From positions 203,685-267,684 of the forward strand of contig JAWSUS010000001.1 in NCBI GenBank assembly GCA_033549025.1: 64,000 bases of DNA, read 5' to 3'. How positions within the stretch are numbered: position 1 is the stretch's first letter; every line of letters starts with the position of its first letter. A model generated the notes under the pieces. The model saw nothing but the letters and a program-made list of their open reading frames with translations, did no database searches and was not told the DNA's origin. Of this stretch, positions 20,606 through 27,590 are shown one piece after another. Source of the DNA: Desulfuromonadales bacterium (GTDB lineage Bacteria; Desulfobacterota; Desulfuromonadia; Desulfuromonadales; SZUA-540). Both the position numbers and the translations under genes were made by a program.

Positions 20606-22462
20606 TCATTGCAGAGTAAAAGTCCAGACGTCACTTTCGCTGACAGCACCGTGGCTGTCCTCGGTGACGACTTTCCAGTAATACGTCCCCGGCGCCAGAC
20701 CGTCAACCTGATATTTCACGATCTCAACAGGTGTCGGCGTGACGCTTCCCGAACTGCCACCGCCCCCACCTCCGCCACAGGAAACCAGCAACCAACCAGC
20801 CGCCACCAGACATAGCAGCAACGATATCGCGCCATGGCGTCGTTTTGACCACAGGCCCGCGCCCAGCAAGAGTCCGGTCCCCAGTAAAAGGATCGTCGAT
20901 TCAACAAGTGACGTGTCAACGTAAGTATACGGTGAAAATTCAGCATTTTCAGCATAAACAAGGGTTTCTGTCAAAGGGTCGCCATTGGCATCCGTTCCCC
21001 TCGCCCACTCGAACACCACCGAGGAACCGACAAGATCAGCGCCATTTGCCGGGGCGCGAAGCTGGGCGGCGACGGGGGGAACGTTGAGCTGCTTGTAGGC
21101 GGCGAGGGCGTTGACCAGGCCGTAGCCGTAGTAATTATCTGGACCTGCCTCGCCGAGATCCGTTGCCCCGCCTGTCAGGGCCCTTTCCAATTCAGCGGAG
21201 GAAGCGTTGGGAAAAGCATCGAGCAACAAGGCCATGACACCTGCCACATGAGGCGTGGAGAACGAGGTGCCGGAGTAAAGCGCGTACGGAAAAGAAGGGT
21301 CGTTGGTAGAGGTCTCGATATATTCGCCGGGGGCGGTCAGCTCGGGATAGATGGAGCCATCACAGGTCGAAGGCCCGACAGCGCTGAAGGTCGAGACGAC
21401 CAAGGTCTTGCTGACACTTCCCACAGCCACCGACTCCGGGTAATTTGCCGGACTGATGTCACCCGTTTGTTCTGTATTGCCTGCGGCAAAAACCACCGCT
21501 ATCCCAAAAGACTTAAGCGCGCTGACAGCTGGTTGGAAGTCAAGAATACATCTATTGACTTCGTCATCAAAGCCCCAGGAATTATTGACAATATCGGGAG
21601 CGTCATCGGTTGAATCTACCCCGTCAGGGTTAAGCATCCATTGAAAGGCCAGGAGTATCTTGGAGTTATCCGCATTCCCCTCGTCATCGAAAATTTTAGC
21701 TGCAATCCACTGGGCCGCCGGAGCAACACCAATACCGTTGTCACCCAAGATAACACCAGTGACAGCCGTTCCGTGCCCTGAAGCTTCAGGATCTGCGGGA
21801 TACAAGGGGTCATACGGAAGTGTCGTGTTTTTATACGGGTCAAACCAGCCGCCGTTTTCACGCCACTTGGCTGCCAGGGCCGGATGCGTCACATCAACGC
21901 CGCTGTCCATCACGCCCACGACGACACCTTCCCCTTCGTATCCTTTGGCCCACAAATCCGGGACCTTTACGGCGCCCAGGTTATCCCAGGCACTAGTCAT
22001 GGCAATGGCCTGAGGCGCAGGCGAACTCAGGCGAATGACCTCGTCATAGCGGATGGATTCCACCTCGGGCAGTGCGGCGAGGTCTTCTACTTGGGCAGCG
22101 GTCAACTGCACCGCCAGCGCGTTGATAAGCCAGAGGGGACGCTCTCCCGTTACCCTCTGCTGACGGAGATAGCGGATAACGTTCTGCTGGCTGCCGACGG
22201 CGTGGCTCCGGAGATAACGGATGAGTTTGGCGCGGGCGGCGGCCCGCTCTTCACATCGCCTCATCCCGCGCACCGCGAAAGACTCTACCTCCGGCGGCGC
22301 CGCAAATTGGATGATGACCGGAACAACCTCGTCCGCGGCTGTGGATTTCAAAGTACCCTGAAGCCTTTGATCCAGAACCGCTCCGGAGGCGCCGCCGATC
22401 ATGAAGCTCGTCATGAAAAAAAGAAGCAGCAACGCCGGGCCACTGTATTTTTTTAAATTCAT
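20606..22462 (-). CDS. S8 family (subtilisin-like) serine protease, secreted
   Basis: Signal peptide, propeptide, triad motifs MDSGVD / GHGTAVTG / SGTSFSTPHVAG, oxyanion AAGN; C-terminal beta domain with internal hydrophobic segments. Confidence 0.93.
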   Translation of the reverse strand: MNLKKYSGPALLLLFFMTSFMIGGASGAVLDQRLQGTLKSTAADEVVPVIIQFAAPPEVESFAVRGMRRCEERAAARAKLIRYLRSHAVGSQQNVIRYLRQQRVTGERPLWLINALAVQLTAAQVEDLAALPEVESIRYDEVIRLSSPAPQAIAMTSAWDNLGAVKVPDLWAKGYEGEGVVVGVMDSGVDVTHPALAAKWRENGGWFDPYKNTTLPYDPLYPADPEASGHGTAVTGVILGDNGIGVAPAAQWIAAKIFDDEGNADNSKILLAFQWMLNPDGVDSTDDAPDIVNNSWGFDDEVNRCILDFQPAVSALKSFGIAVVFAAGNTEQTGDISPANYPESVAVGSVSKTLVVSTFSAVGPSTCDGSIYPELTAPGEYIETSTNDPSFPYALYSGTSFSTPHVAGVMALLLDAFPNASSAELERALTGGATDLGEAGPDNYYGYGLVNALAAYKQLNVPPVAAQLRAPANGADLVGSSVVFEWARGTDANGDPLTETLVYAENAEFSPYTYVDTSLVESTILLLGTGLLLGAGLWSKRRHGAISLLLCLVAAGWLLVSCGGGGGGGSSGSVTPTPVEIVKYQVDGLAPGTYYWKVVTEDSHGAVSESDVWTFTLQ

Positions 22463-23820
22463 AGAACCCTCGCAAGGAAACCTCTGGTTTCAACCGGGGG
22501 AGGAATTGCGATCCGTCGTGAGACGGAAGGCTTTGGTTGATAGGTGTAGCCGTCAGCCTGATGCACGATCCGGCAGTGCCGGTAAGATATGCCCTGGATC
22601 GTTCCGAAGGCCGTCGCGATATTGAATCTGCCGCTGGTTCTAACGGCGACACGGCCCAAGTGCAGACCGGCTCTTTTGCCGGAGGGAACGACGGCTTTAA
22701 CCTGGTCACCTGTGCGAAACCCCTGCACGAAGCGAGCACTCTTGGCGCTGGTGCGGGGGATGCCGAAGCGATCCATACGGCACATCTGACGGCTGCCCCG
22801 TCCCGTGGCGGTGATGGATAAAGGGGCCTGGTCGGGTTTCAGTCGCACGGTATCTCCAGACTCACCCACACATGCCGCGTCAATCCAGTGGGCCTTGGGA
22901 TAGTGCAGCCCAGTGCGGTTGTACTTGGTCCGACCGCCAGACCAGAAAGAGACGGGTAGCCCCAGCGTTTTAACCGCATGGCCGATGGCGTAGCGGGTGG
23001 CGTTGACGGCAGCGGAATCATTGAGCGGTCGCTTTAATTGACCAAGGATCTTTTGGAGCTGTTCCGGCCGGTCAGCCAGAAATTCCTGCACGGGCCGATT
23101 GCCTTTGCGTTCGTTGCAGTCCCGACACGACAGGGTAAGATTACTGATCCGGTTGGAGCCGCCTTTGCTTCTGGGAACGACATGCTCGATCTCCAGCGGC
23201 ACATTCTCGTCCCCACAATAAACACAGCGTCGCTGCCATTTTTCCAACAGATACTCGCGAACCTCGTAACCAAATAGCGTCCCTTGCTGGTATTCCACGC
23301 CACTAATCTCCGGGTTCTCGGCTTTCTGCAAATCAAACCTCACCGTTTCGACCGCAACGCTGGTGATCGGGCAGAGTCGTTGCAGCCGCTTTGCCAGCGT
23401 CAGGACGTTGTTGACTCTGGACTGCAGTGACGGTGGCAACCAGCCTTGTGGCCGAGTCCGGTTATCGAACCGGGGCGCACGGTAGCGGGTCTTGCGATGA
23501 CGCCGTGAACGCCGGATCGCCCGACGGCTTTCGAGGGCTTTTTTGATGGCTGCGCCTCGGTGGTGCAGTTCCGCGCACCAGAGAACGGTATTGGCGGAGT
23601 CGTGGTTGCCTACGAGGGCAACACCGGTGGTCTTGCTGCCCGGATCGAGCTTGAGTTCGACCGATTGCACATCCCCGCCGGTGCGGTGCTTCAAAACAAT
23701 AGTGAACGGGTAGCGGCGATACACCGCCGCCTTTCCGTTTCGCAGGAGCATTCTGGCCCGTGCCGGCGAGCAAGGGGAAAGGGGTTGTTTGGTATTGTCG
23801 AGTACAAAGACTCTCTGCAT
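22459..23820 (-). CDS. iscB: RNA-guided endonuclease IscB (453 aa)
   Basis: PLMP-type start MQRVFVLD..PLSPC; RuvC-I LKLDPGSKTTG; Arg-rich bridge RRAIRRSRRHRKTRYR; RuvC-II VETVRFD; HNH CVYCG..EIEHVVPRSKGGSNRISNL..CRDCN; RuvC-III HWIDAAC. Confidence 0.96.
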   Translation of the reverse strand: MQRVFVLDNTKQPLSPCSPARARMLLRNGKAAVYRRYPFTIVLKHRTGGDVQSVELKLDPGSKTTGVALVGNHDSANTVLWCAELHHRGAAIKKALESRRAIRRSRRHRKTRYRAPRFDNRTRPQGWLPPSLQSRVNNVLTLAKRLQRLCPITSVAVETVRFDLQKAENPEISGVEYQQGTLFGYEVREYLLEKWQRRCVYCGDENVPLEIEHVVPRSKGGSNRISNLTLSCRDCNERKGNRPVQEFLADRPEQLQKILGQLKRPLNDSAAVNATRYAIGHAVKTLGLPVSFWSGGRTKYNRTGLHYPKAHWIDAACVGESGDTVRLKPDQAPLSITATGRGSRQMCRMDRFGIPRTSAKSARFVQGFRTGDQVKAVVPSGKRAGLHLGRVAVRTSGRFNIATAFGTIQGISYRHCRIVHQADGYTYQPKPSVSRRIAIPPPVETRGFLARVL

Positions 23821-24097
23821 CGTTGTACCTTTTAAGTACCGGGTTACCCCGGCTTTCTCGCCTTGCGGCGGTAAAGTCTCCCTCGGCAAGGTTGTGAAAC
23901 GGTTTAACGTAGACGGCACCGACGCTTTACCCAGAACGTCTTTTAACCGGCTACCGCAGAGCCTGGAACTGGGAGGGCATTCCAGGGTGCCTATTTCGTT
24001 TCCAACGTAGCCCGTCAGCGATCTCTCGCTGGTGGCTGTGCCCGGTCAATCCAGACTTGTTGCTACAAGCCTCTGACTTCAGTCAGGGGTGATTGAC
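22463..24097. mobile_element. Non-autonomous IS200/IS605-superfamily element carrying iscB and omega RNA (ISC/OMEGA)
   Basis: Left flank TTCAT (22458-22462). Left hairpin GAAA-CCTCTGGT-TTCA-ACCGGGGG (22477-22500); right hairpin CAAG-CCTCTGAC-TTCA-GTCAGGGG (24066-24089); terminal TGAC at 24094-24097. No terminal inverted repeats, no target duplication, no tnpA. Confidence 0.9.
23830..24097 (-). ncRNA. HEARO / omega RNA scaffold of IscB (guide would extend 5' into the flank)
   Basis: GTCAATC pairs with GATTGAC; hairpins CCCTGAC-TGAA-GTCAGAG, CTTGT-AGCA-ACAAG, CAGCGA-GAGA-TCGCTG; GGCTACGTT motif; CCTGGAA/TTCCAGG stem whose CTCCC loop can pseudoknot with downstream GGGAG; GNRA hairpins CGCC-GCAA-GGCG and CCGGG-GTAA-CCCGG. 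3' end approximate. Confidence 0.9.
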
Positions 24098-24628
24098 CGT
24101 CTGTGACCTCGCTGTTTACGGATTACTATACATTCTACTGCACTGTGCTCTCCAAGAACAGCCATCAAAATCATCTGACCAGGCGATACGGGACATCCGC
24201 TTTGCGATTTAACCGGATTGTTTCCAGCAGTTCGGGCAATTGACCAGTCGTTGGCTCATTCGAATGGCCTTCTTCACCTTCTGAAAAAGTCCGAGCAACC
24301 TCAATACTTTCTCACCCGTTGGGGCATTTCCCCTATGGCCTTTCAGCCAAACGGCAGACAGTTCCTAACCGCCGTCAGAAAAATCATCCTAAAAACCTCA
24401 ACAAAGATCTGTTAAAATAGACCCTGCCTTAAAAAGTTCGCGAATCCCCCCATTTCGACCTAGGGCAAACCCCCTTACCTGAGCATGTGGTCGATCAGCT
24501 AGGCAACCGTGCCTGACAACCCCGCCGAAAGAGCAGATCACCCTTGGTGCAGCTCTTGCAAACAAGCCTTTCGGCGCTATTATTTCAGGGTCATGCCCCT
24601 TTTTTAATGTAAGTATATTGGCGACATC

Positions 24629-25837
24629 ATGGGCACTTTTCGATGCAAAATAGGGACCGCTGACGGGCGGATCCTGGAAAAAGACCTGGATGCCGCCAGC
24701 AAGGGGATCCTGAAGGAGAGCCTTGAGGATCAGGGCTTCCATGTCTTTCGCATCCAAAGACGCGGGCTGCCCCTCTCAGGGGCCCTCAGCGGTCAGCAAG
24801 GGCGTCTGAGCAGCAGCCGCTTTCTCTCTTTCAATCAGGAATTCCTGGTTCTGCTGCGGGCCGGGCTGCCCATCCTGCAGGTACTGGACACCATCATGGA
24901 GCGGATGGAGTCAGGGCGCCTGCTGGAAATCCTGCGGGAAATCCGCGAGGATGTCAAAGGAGGCAGCTCCATCAGCGAGGCCTTCAACAGATTTCCCACC
25001 GTCTTTCCTTCCCTTTATATCGCCTCCATCCGGGCGGGGGAACGCACGGGTGAACTCCCCGTGGCCATCGAGCGTTTTATCGCCTACCAGAAACGGGTGG
25101 AGGCCATCAAAAGCAAGGTTCGCAACGCTTCTTTCTACCCGATCCTGCTATCGACGGCGGTGATTGCCGTGGTCCTTTTTCTCATGCTGTTCGTCATCCC
25201 CCGTTTCACGCAGGTCTACGCTGATGCCCAGGTAGAGCTGCCCCTGATGACCCGTTTTCTCATCACCGTCTCTCAGGGCATGGGAAAGGCAGCACCCCTG
25301 CTGGTGCCGCTTGTCATCCTGCTGGCTTTCATGGCCCGGGGATTTCTGCGCACCGAAAAGGGATATTGGCTGCGCGACAGGCTCAAACTGGTTCTTCCCT
25401 TTTTCGGTCAGCTTTTTAAAGACTATGCCCTGCTCAGTTTCTGCCGCACACTCGGCACCACCCTGGCCAGCGGCATCCCGGTGGTGCAGGCGATGCAGAT
25501 GTCCCGTGGCACCCTGAATAACCGCCTGCTGGAAGAGCGGCTGAGCCTGGCTGTCCGCCGGGTCCAGGAAGGCACCTCGCTGTCGGAAGCCCTGGAGGAG
25601 ACCGGTTTCTTTCCCAAACTGGCTCTGCGCATGATCGGCGTGGGCGAAACAGGCGGTTCTCTTTCTTCCATGCTGGAGGATGTCGCCATGTATTACGAGG
25701 GCGAGGTGGAAAAGAGGCTCGACCGTCTGACCACCCTCATCGAACCGGCGATGATGATGACCATAGGCCTGCTGATTGGGGCTATCGTCGTCGCCATGTA
25801 CCTGCCCATTTTCCAGCTTGCCGGCACGGCCGGCTGA
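24629..25837 (+). CDS. gspF: Type II secretion inner-membrane platform protein F
   Basis: LLRAGLPILQ.L..GERTGEL..YP; VGETGGSL..LIEP..MYLPIF. Confidence 0.93.
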   Translation: MGTFRCKIGTADGRILEKDLDAASKGILKESLEDQGFHVFRIQRRGLPLSGALSGQQGRLSSSRFLSFNQEFLVLLRAGLPILQVLDTIMERMESGRLLEILREIREDVKGGSSISEAFNRFPTVFPSLYIASIRAGERTGELPVAIERFIAYQKRVEAIKSKVRNASFYPILLSTAVIAVVLFLMLFVIPRFTQVYADAQVELPLMTRFLITVSQGMGKAAPLLVPLVILLAFMARGFLRTEKGYWLRDRLKLVLPFFGQLFKDYALLSFCRTLGTTLASGIPVVQAMQMSRGTLNNRLLEERLSLAVRRVQEGTSLSEALEETGFFPKLALRMIGVGETGGSLSSMLEDVAMYYEGEVEKRLDRLTTLIEPAMMMTIGLLIGAIVVAMYLPIFQLAGTAG

Positions 25838-25856
25838 CGATATCGGGAGTTCGCGG

Positions 25857-27590
25857 ATGAATTTTGAGCGCAAAAAGATCGGGGAAATCCTGGTGGAGAT
25901 GGGGAACCTCACTCCTTCAGAGGTTAATCTGATCCTCGAGGAGAAGGGCGACAGCTACCGGCGTTTCGGCGAAACGGCCATCGCCAAAGGGATGCTCAAA
26001 GAGGACATTCTCGCCCAGGCTCTGGCCCGCCAGTTCCGCATGGAGTATCTTGATCCCGATTCGTTCAGCCTGGATGCGCAGCTCTATGCCGCCATTCCCA
26101 CCGGCCTGCCCGCCCGCTTCAATTTTCTTCCGATACGGCAACAGGGGGATGCCCTGGTGGTGGCCGTGGGCGACCCCACGGACGTAGCGGCTCTGGACAA
26201 TCTCGAGGTTATTCTCGGGCGTCCGCTCATACTGCAGGTGGCGCCGGCCGAAAGAATCCATCTTTTTCTCGAGCGCGCGGACGGGGGCTCCAAGCATGTC
26301 CTCAAGGAGGTGTCGGAAGACTTCAAGCTGCAGCTGGTAAAGGAGACGGACAAGGGGGAGGAAGTGCTCTCCATCGAGAAGCTGACGGCGGACACCAGCC
26401 CCATCATTCGCCTGATCGACTCGACCCTCTACGACGCCCTGGGCAAACGGGCCAGCGACATTCACATTGAGGCCAGCCACGAAGGGGTGATCATCAAATA
26501 CCGCGTCGACGGCGTGCTCTACCGCGCCACCGAGCCTCTCGACGGCCGTTTCCAGAGCCCGATCATCTCCCGCATCAAGGTCATGAGCGAACTCGACATC
26601 TCCGAGCGCCGCGTCCCCCAGGACGGCCGCTTCAAGGTGCGTCTGGGCGGCAAGTCCATCGATTTCCGTGTCTCCATCATGCCCAGCAGCTTTGGCGAGG
26701 ACGCCGTCATCCGTATTCTCGACAAAGAGGCCATCGCCTCCGACCTCAAGGGGCTGACGCTGGAGGCCCTGGGCATCAGCCCGCGAGAGATAGAACGTCT
26801 GCGCCGCATGATCCGCGAGCCCTACGGCATGGTGCTAGTCACGGGGCCGACGGGCAGCGGCAAAACGACCACCCTCTATGCCGCCCTGTCTGAAATCAAC
26901 AACGATCAGGAGAAGATCATCACCATCGAGGATCCGGTGGAATACCAGGTCTCCGGTGTGGTGCAGATCCCCGTCAACGAGAAGAAGGGGCTGACCTTTG
27001 CCCGCGGCCTGCGCTCCATCCTGCGCCACGACCCCGACAAGATCATGGTGGGCGAAATCCGCGACCCGGAGACGGCCCAGATCGCCGTGCAGTCGGCACT
27101 GACGGGACATCTGGTTTTCACCACAGTGCATGCCAATAACGTCTTCGACGTACTCGGCCGTTTTCTGCACATGGGTATCGATCCCTACAACTTCGTCTCC
27201 TGTCTCAACTGCGTCGCCGCCCAGCGCCTGGTGCGACGCATCTGCCCCAAATGCAAAAAACCCGTGCACTATGATCGTCAAACCCTTGAGCAGTCGGGCC
27301 TGAGCTTTGAGCAGTACGGCGATTTCACCTTCTACGAAGGAGCCGGCTGCGAAGACTGTCACGGCATGGGCTACAAAGGGCGCAGCGCCATTGTCGAACT
27401 GCTCGATCTCAACGATGAACTGCGGGAGCTGATCGTCCAGAAAGCCCCGGTCACCCAGCTGAAGAAGGCCGCCAGAGAGGCGGGCACCATCTTCCTGCGG
27501 GAAGCGGCGCTGGAAAAAGTCTTTGCCGGCCTGACCAGTCTGGCGGAAATCAACCGGGTAACCTTTATCGAACAGGTGGAGCCATCGTGA
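25857..27590 (+). CDS. gspE: Type II secretion ATPase E (PulE/PilB family)
   Basis: ASDIHIE, PQDGR, GPTGSGKTTT, TIEDPVE, LRHDPD.IMVGEIRD, Cys pairs CPKC/CEDC. Confidence 0.95.
   Translation: MNFERKKIGEILVEMGNLTPSEVNLILEEKGDSYRRFGETAIAKGMLKEDILAQALARQFRMEYLDPDSFSLDAQLYAAIPTGLPARFNFLPIRQQGDALVVAVGDPTDVAALDNLEVILGRPLILQVAPAERIHLFLERADGGSKHVLKEVSEDFKLQLVKETDKGEEVLSIEKLTADTSPIIRLIDSTLYDALGKRASDIHIEASHEGVIIKYRVDGVLYRATEPLDGRFQSPIISRIKVMSELDISERRVPQDGRFKVRLGGKSIDFRVSIMPSSFGEDAVIRILDKEAIASDLKGLTLEALGISPREIERLRRMIREPYGMVLVTGPTGSGKTTTLYAALSEINNDQEKIITIEDPVEYQVSGVVQIPVNEKKGLTFARGLRSILRHDPDKIMVGEIRDPETAQIAVQSALTGHLVFTTVHANNVFDVLGRFLHMGIDPYNFVSCLNCVAAQRLVRRICPKCKKPVHYDRQTLEQSGLSFEQYGDFTFYEGAGCEDCHGMGYKGRSAIVELLDLNDELRELIVQKAPVTQLKKAAREAGTIFLREAALEKVFAGLTSLAEINRVTFIEQVEPS

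Follow-up and report, generated by a model that had tools for sequence, protein, structure and literature searches.

Non-autonomous ISC transposons were described by Kapitonov, Makarova and Koonin (2016, PMC4810608) as elements of 1.3-1.7 kb that encode only IscB, the RNA-guided nuclease from which Cas9 descends, have 5'-GT(CA) termini and hairpin ends and cause no duplication of their target, which reads N|ATGA in several of the cyanobacterial and proteobacterial families covered there. In a second described system, GstIscB of Geobacillus stearothermophilus, the guide is no part of the element and has to be transcribed from the DNA of the host, and both GstIscB and its TnpA transposase recognise TTCAT 5' of the left end; the same account puts the proportion of iscB genes with a tnpA nearby at only ~1.5% (Meers et al., bioRxiv 10.1101/2023.03.14.532601). 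Here we describe a related locus in a 64,000-nucleotide stretch of a Desulfuromonadales genome (contig JAWSUS010000001.1), referred to below as the window. Our essential contention, which we hold with high but not complete confidence, is that the minus strand of the window at 22463-24097 carries an intact non-autonomous ISC2-type transposon in which a single omega RNA (HEARO) gene accompanies a single iscB gene.

The locus closely resembles both precedents. By their published description in PMC4810608, ISC2-1_HM, ISC2-1_MS and ISC1-1_MA are, as here, short IscB-only elements with 5'-GT(CA) termini and subterminal hairpins, inserted 5' of ATGA without duplication; the boundaries of those ISC2 and ISC1 elements were likewise taken from empty sites, but their host lineage differs. 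According to Meers et al. the wild-type target-adjacent motif (TAM) of GstIscB is TTCAT, the very five bases that flank both copies of our element and the reverse complement of ATGAA, and its element, ISGst5, also has no tnpA of its own; however, a trans-acting TnpA and cleavage have been demonstrated for GstIscB, whereas for the element described here both are only predicted.

Two kinds of comparison fix the ends of the element. A second copy at an unrelated locus in the same genome (G000:C2:278595-280229) is 98% identical, with an intact open reading frame (ORF) and a HEARO of 132 bits, and its agreement with the window copy begins exactly at 24097, with GTCA, and ends after the ATGAA at 22458. 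The window's insertion site is empty in two genomes of the same genus: in G002 the flanks are contiguous, 22462 being joined to 24098, and G001 has the same junction with two bases different. At the site of copy 2 both relatives have the flank and then ATGAA directly. The point at which the copies agree, taken together with these empty sites, therefore places the element at 22463-24097 (1,635 bp), starting with GTCA and ending with TTCT in the orientation of iscB. Because the empty sites assign 22458-22462 to the target, the stop codon of iscB (TGA, 22461-22459) lies outside the element. When compared with its empty sites, neither insertion carries a target duplication, and both are immediately 5' of ATGA(A). 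Subterminal hairpins at both ends, precise insertion free of target duplication and copies at unrelated loci (C1 and C2) are thus all found, as in the IS200/IS605 superfamily. The left end is kept in copy 2 with 4 substitutions, and a blastn-short search of the genome with both ends matched the two copies only. A first-pass annotation made from the sequence alone had given the extent as 22459..24097 and had taken the first base of the non-coding stretch upstream of iscB as the element end; 24097 is indeed that end by both lines of evidence, but the other lies at 22463 and all features are on the minus strand. It had also called the element transposase-less, and rightly so, for the 1,635 bp contain no tnpA and leave no room for one, and none lies beside it. 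Coordinates are collected in Table 1; the DNA folds of the end hairpins given there were computed on the top strand without a shuffle control.

Table 1. Features of the ISC2-type element and its surroundings, in positions of the window.
Feature	Position	Strand	Basis and remarks
Whole non-autonomous ISC2-type element (IS200/IS605 superfamily), very probable	22463..24097	-	1,635 bp; second copy and empty sites
iscB coding sequence, 453 aa and stop	22459..23820	-	Uninterrupted translation; profile, alignment and structure matches
Omega RNA scaffold (HEARO, Rfam RF02033)	23871..24097	-	Score 134.7 bits, E 5.4e-29 (gathering score 83), model 1-211 of 211
Probable omega RNA 3' extension	23821..23870	-	Small hairpins in minimum free energy and centroid folds
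Predicted guide segment	24098..24113	-	Host DNA directly outside the right end; 16-nt length assumed
Target site and predicted TAM, unduplicated	22458..22462	-	ATGAA on the iscB strand (TTCAT on +, 5' of the left end); includes host ATG and IscB stop TGA
Transposon left end	22463..22530	+	Two subterminal hairpins, DNA fold -14.5 kcal/mol; GAGG(G) Shine-Dalgarno-like motif 6-10 nt before host ATG
Transposon right end	24030..24097	+	Nested hairpins, DNA fold -17.5 kcal/mol
Sigma-70-like promoter match, TGGAGA-18-TATAGT, host DNA	24125..24154	-	Consensus scan; 27 nt separate the -10 hexamer from the element
Host gene, 618-aa S8 subtilase, intact	20606..22462	-	Peptidase_S8 4.4e-50; ATG overlaps IscB stop (ATGA)

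The 453-aa IscB frame proposed by the first-pass annotation translates without a stop, and its identity is agreed by several comparisons. The NCBIfam equivalog model guided_IscB (NF040563) matches residues 4-319 with 459.9 bits against a cut-off of 175, over positions 1-314 of the 314 in the model; Pfam RRXRR (PF14239) covers residues 4-180 (1.4e-74) and three HNH models match, among them PF01844 (1.2e-13) and PF14279 (5.7e-14) at residues 199-247. Seven distinct sequences of solved IscB structures in the Protein Data Bank (PDB) are matched with E-values from 6.6e-49 to 1.7e-28. Residues D59, E158, H311 and D314 align with D61, E193, H340 and D343 of OgeuIscB, and H213 with H247, which Kato et al. 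(PMC9640706) name as the catalytic residues of the RuvC and HNH domains respectively. Across 44 aligned clade members E158, H311 and D314 are invariant, as are the zinc cysteines C199, C202, C232 and C235, and D59 is conserved in at least 90%. The split RuvC, the arginine-rich bridge helix (at about residues 89-117) and the zinc-finger HNH thus appear as intact as had been supposed. An N-terminus of PLMP type had also been proposed: the PLMP domain is present, by the RRXRR match, but the motif itself reads PLSP (residues 13-16, aligned to PLMP at 14-17 of OgeuIscB), which is the consensus of the 44 clade members.

Beyond the matches described above, residues 320-453 are covered by no sequence model, and here we rely on an AlphaFold2 model built on the 44-member clade alignment, with a mean predicted local distance difference test score (pLDDT) of 73.4 and a predicted template modelling score (pTM) of 0.61. 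Its residues 2-431 align to DtIsrB (Z 20.8) and residues 1/2-428 to four OgeuIscB entries (Z 18.9-19.4); taken together, alignments to IsrB and IscB chains reach residues 428-432 (Z 17.5-20.8), with beta strands at 373-429. Because the predicted structure aligns to these proteins over that region, the model indicates that the beta-rich C-terminal TAM-interacting (WED) region is present, at about residues 373-429. The protein closes with a tail at 433-453 that is modelled with low confidence (pLDDT <50 at 435-453) and whose codons lie in the hairpins of the left end; of the 11 amino-acid positions at which the copies differ, 4 fall in this stretch of about 20 residues. The fold and catalytic residues are those of OgeuIscB (PDB 7utn, 7xht, 8csz), and the fold is also that of DtIsrB (PDB 8dmb), which has no HNH domain and only nicks, although identity to either protein is 26-28%. 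The TAM of OgeuIscB is given as NNRR or NWRRNA, unlike ATGA(A), while that reported for DtIsrB, NTGA or TTGA, resembles ATGA (PMC9581776). The IscB of Geoalkalibacter subterraneus (P0011), the nearest named relative, is 74% identical over 95% of the query and has the same Pfam domains, but at 433 aa it is without the tail of some 20 residues that here reads through the left end and on into the target site.

Upstream of iscB, and on its strand, the annotation had noted about 270 nt of structured non-coding sequence, which corresponds to 23821-24097 (277 nt). A slightly longer segment of 283 nt, reaching from 24097 to within the opening codons of iscB (23815-24097), folds with -103.8 kcal/mol (z = -3.0), and none of 200 shuffles was as stable. 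That this is an omega RNA was supported by the covariance search that had been suggested as a check: the HEARO match spans the full model, starts at the element end and finishes 50 nt upstream of the iscB ATG, and the same search of 14 control genomes gave no match. The first stem-loops of the RNA are the reverse complement of the right-end hairpins of the transposon. According to Meers et al. (bioRxiv 10.1101/2023.03.14.532601), RF02033 stops short of structural elements that follow downstream in the omega RNA; we regard the small hairpins between the scaffold and iscB as a probable 3' extension.

The predicted TAM, ATGA(A), is supported by the insertion sites themselves. ATGAA flanks both copies, and the empty sites read ATGAA (copy 2) and ATGAC (the window's site in the relatives). 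The IscB has more than 8,000 matches among database proteins, the best of them outside its own genome being 81% identical, and we compared 23 related genomic loci, inspecting the 3' region in 19; L033, L042, L045 and L047 were left out, their matches being weak or stopping before the C-terminus. L026 (GTG|ATGA, recognised later), L036 (no recognisable junction) and L040 (where the locus ends) were also dropped from the junction count. In the remaining 16 loci and the two own copies, junctions were placed by eye after the conserved hairpin, and also at the point of divergence between sister copies where such exist. ATGA stands directly 3' of the element in 15 of the 16 related loci (17/18 with the own copies), L034 having ATGG. 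An ORF of at least 89 codons starts at the junction ATG in 13 of 18 cases, two of the other five being cut by the end of the locus, while 26.6% of ATGA sites in the own genome are followed by such an ORF; the resulting binomial P of ~7e-5 takes its null from one genome and its junctions from inspection by eye. Likewise by eye, GGAG or GAGG occurs no more than 15 nt before the junction ATG in 15/18. A full HEARO above the gathering score was found in 11 of 12 sources (related loci or copies), with none at L040, and all 11 HEAROs examined (10 related loci and copy 2) start with GTCA, while the upstream flanks are unrelated and in many cases bear a Shine-Dalgarno-like motif of the host. The original description of HEARO elements, by Weinberg et al. 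in 2009, is said to have noted ATGA or GTGA beside them. The first-pass prediction of ATGA(A) is therefore in agreement with both copies, the empty sites, most related elements and the published ISC and GstIscB motifs.

Within the order, iscB exceeds the model cut-off in only one of 41 genomes searched, the window's own, which likely reflects a patchy distribution by acquisition. Two weaker matches were seen. A degraded HEARO in a same-order genome (G011:C17:11744-11973; L054:1445-1674) reaches 51.4 bits where the gathering score is 83; on its strand no ORF of at least 70 aa overlaps ~2000-2460 of the locus, two short ORFs (77 and 78 aa) follow just after, and there is no frame of IscB size. 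In all probability a related element has decayed here or has left only its RNA part behind. In the own genome, G000:C41:9380-9631 weakly matches the HNH portion of the IscB model (44.4 bits, below cut-off) and contains one in-frame TGA; it may represent a different HNH gene or only part of a gene.

In proposing how the element would work, we have inferred each step from the published biology of the family. Transcription would start in the upstream host DNA, with the displaced S8 peptidase promoter as its probable origin, and run into the element; some 16-20 host bases beside the right end would then become the 5' guide and the first 230-280 nt of the element the scaffold. IscB would bind this omega RNA and cut double-stranded DNA that matches the guide and continues with ATGA(A), HNH cutting the target strand and RuvC the other. 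A guide-matching target followed by ATGA(A) would exist only where the element is absent, that is, in the donor joint left by the Y1 transposase (TnpA) or in an empty allele, and the cut would therefore provoke recombinational re-copying of the element. Mobility itself would require TnpA in trans. Both activity as a compact, reprogrammable RNA-guided nuclease, held probable in the first-pass annotation, and mobility are plausible.

The guide is placed outside the element because of the findings of Meers et al. (bioRxiv 10.1101/2023.03.14.532601) on GstIscB. The flank on the guide side differs between copy 1 and copy 2 and stands unchanged in the empty sites, and no perfect match to guide and ATGA is found elsewhere in the own genome, the best having 3 mismatches in 16. 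A consensus scan for sigma-70 sites gave 4 against 0.9 expected in shuffles, and with the promoter match listed in Table 1, transcription starting about 7 nt past the -10 hexamer would produce a 5' guide of about 20 nt. Contigs from sediment metatranscriptomes, of at least 95% likeness, cover parts of the element; one of them joins the guide flank of copy 2 to the omega RNA and another bridges the junction between the left end and the peptidase gene. A contig from one run (X2) has the omega RNA beside a flank unlike that of either genomic copy (at the junction 24097/24098), which hints that a related strain has the element at a third site.

The genome has 6 Y1_Tnp matches, which include a tnpA-tnpB element on C8, three Y1 proteins of greater length and a tnpA split between C20 and C59. 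The IS605-type element on C8 (L003:185-1890) has a tnpA of 133 aa (Y1_Tnp 4.9e-38) overlapping a TnpB-like gene of 435 aa with a Cas12f1-like TNB domain; we considered it as a transposase partner and rejected it, since the hairpins at its ends are unlike those at 22463-22530 and 24030-24097. The split Y1 gene lies at two contig ends (G000:C20:62880-63122 and G000:C59:1-258), which suggests a repeated insertion sequence that broke the assembly.

Several observations count against an active and mobile element. No Y1 transposase with matching ends was found in the assembly and none lies near DNA resembling the element ends, so mobility may have been lost; and the copies differ by 2%, so transposition was not very recent. 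The signal of selection is weak: the coding sequences of the copies differ at only 17 positions (11 non-synonymous, 6 synonymous), giving a ratio of non-synonymous to synonymous rates (dN/dS) of 0.62 for the whole gene, and 4 of the non-synonymous changes fall in the last 8 codons. The promoter is a consensus match only, the contigs from RNA libraries are consistent with carry-over of DNA and show no 5' end, and in one published survey 10/19 previously uncharacterized IscBs, and no more, were identified as active (PMC11666462). Taken further, these points would describe a stranded relic that looks intact but is immobile, with its nuclease or RNA dead and too little time elapsed for visible decay. 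The missing cognate TnpA, the divergence of the copies and the whole-gene dN/dS with its cluster of terminal changes would all suit such a relic, as would the 6 substitutions and two single-base indels that separate the omega RNA of copy 2 from that of copy 1 and the occurrence of a decayed HEARO without iscB in a same-order genome. Yet both ORFs remain open over 453 codons with the five catalytic residues and four zinc cysteines kept, both HEAROs score far above the gathering threshold, and dN/dS falls to 0.39 over residues 1-430 (7 non-synonymous, 6 synonymous), that is, outside the tail; a partner TnpA, too, could be unassembled, as 9,464 bases of the genome lay outside the sequence searched and one tnpA is divided between the ends of C20 and C59. 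On this balance we consider a relic unlikely, and retain the reading of an intact ISC2-type transposon.

The window copy stands between the native leader and ribosome-binding site of the S8 subtilase gene and its ATG, the gene having orthologues with an empty site in G001 and G002. Copy 2 is likewise placed (G000:C2:280222-280234; L002:3135-3147) before a transketolase gene (Transketolase_N 2.8e-127). As a consequence of where they lie, the predicted guides of both copies are the last leader bases of the peptidase and transketolase genes, including their ribosome-binding motifs, GAGG in the case of the peptidase. At the other end, iscB in this lineage stays open across the left end of the transposon and terminates within the target, its TGA overlapping the host ATG; three relatives (L027, L028 and L035) have the same stop in the target, and most stop earlier. 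A GAGG in the left end lies 6-10 nt upstream of the host ATG (window 22458-22470), and from this arrangement the downstream host gene is probably not silenced by the insertion.

It is possible, though we lean a little towards doubting it, that the ATGA(A)-targeting IscB clade is adapted to dock on start codons, as an evolved strategy that goes beyond what selection against disruptive insertions would leave behind. The target motif would then serve by containing the host ATG, and the left end by bringing a replacement Shine-Dalgarno motif; the downstream gene, even one for transketolase, would stay translated, possibly by coupling, while the element would take over the host promoter and leader that are needed to transcribe an externally encoded guide. 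A literature search, in which the supplements of the Meers et al. preprint were outside the scope, found no paper stating that IscB or ISC elements dock on start codons, and start codons are nowhere mentioned by Kapitonov et al. (PMC4810608). The placement of both copies exactly between ribosome-binding site and ATG of an intact gene, with the overlapping stop and the GAGG of the left end, might instead mean that the element is retained for its use to the host, giving the peptidase and transketolase genes a promoter-proximal leader, a ribosome-binding site and a means of translational coupling, rather than persisting as a selfish nuclease, but an ATGA target combined with selection against disruptive insertions gives the same arrangement automatically, same-genus relatives with empty sites express both genes without it and there is no sign of host benefit, so that we regard this as very improbable.

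On its other side the element adjoins divergent genes for a type II secretion system (T2SS) or type IV pilus (24629-27590, plus strand), with matches to T2SSF (1.3e-60) and to T2SSE with an MshEN domain (5.2e-130). The intergenic region of 530 bp between the element and these genes contains the displaced promoter region of the peptidase gene.

This analysis leaves the picture of the family unchanged: NCBI already has an IscB model that recognises the protein, thousands of relatives exist, and the element, although complete, is an ordinary representative of a small mobile element that is already known. Its value lies in being a clean natural case, with two intact copies, ends that two independent empty sites fix to the base, and a TAM that could be taken straight from nature. 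Given the intact copies, exact ends and natural TAM, it is a low-risk candidate for a compact IscB (453 aa, or about 430 without the tail) with a predicted TAM of ATGA(A). Docking on start codons, if true, would explain how such elements come to stand before essential genes while gaining from outside the transcription that their guides require.

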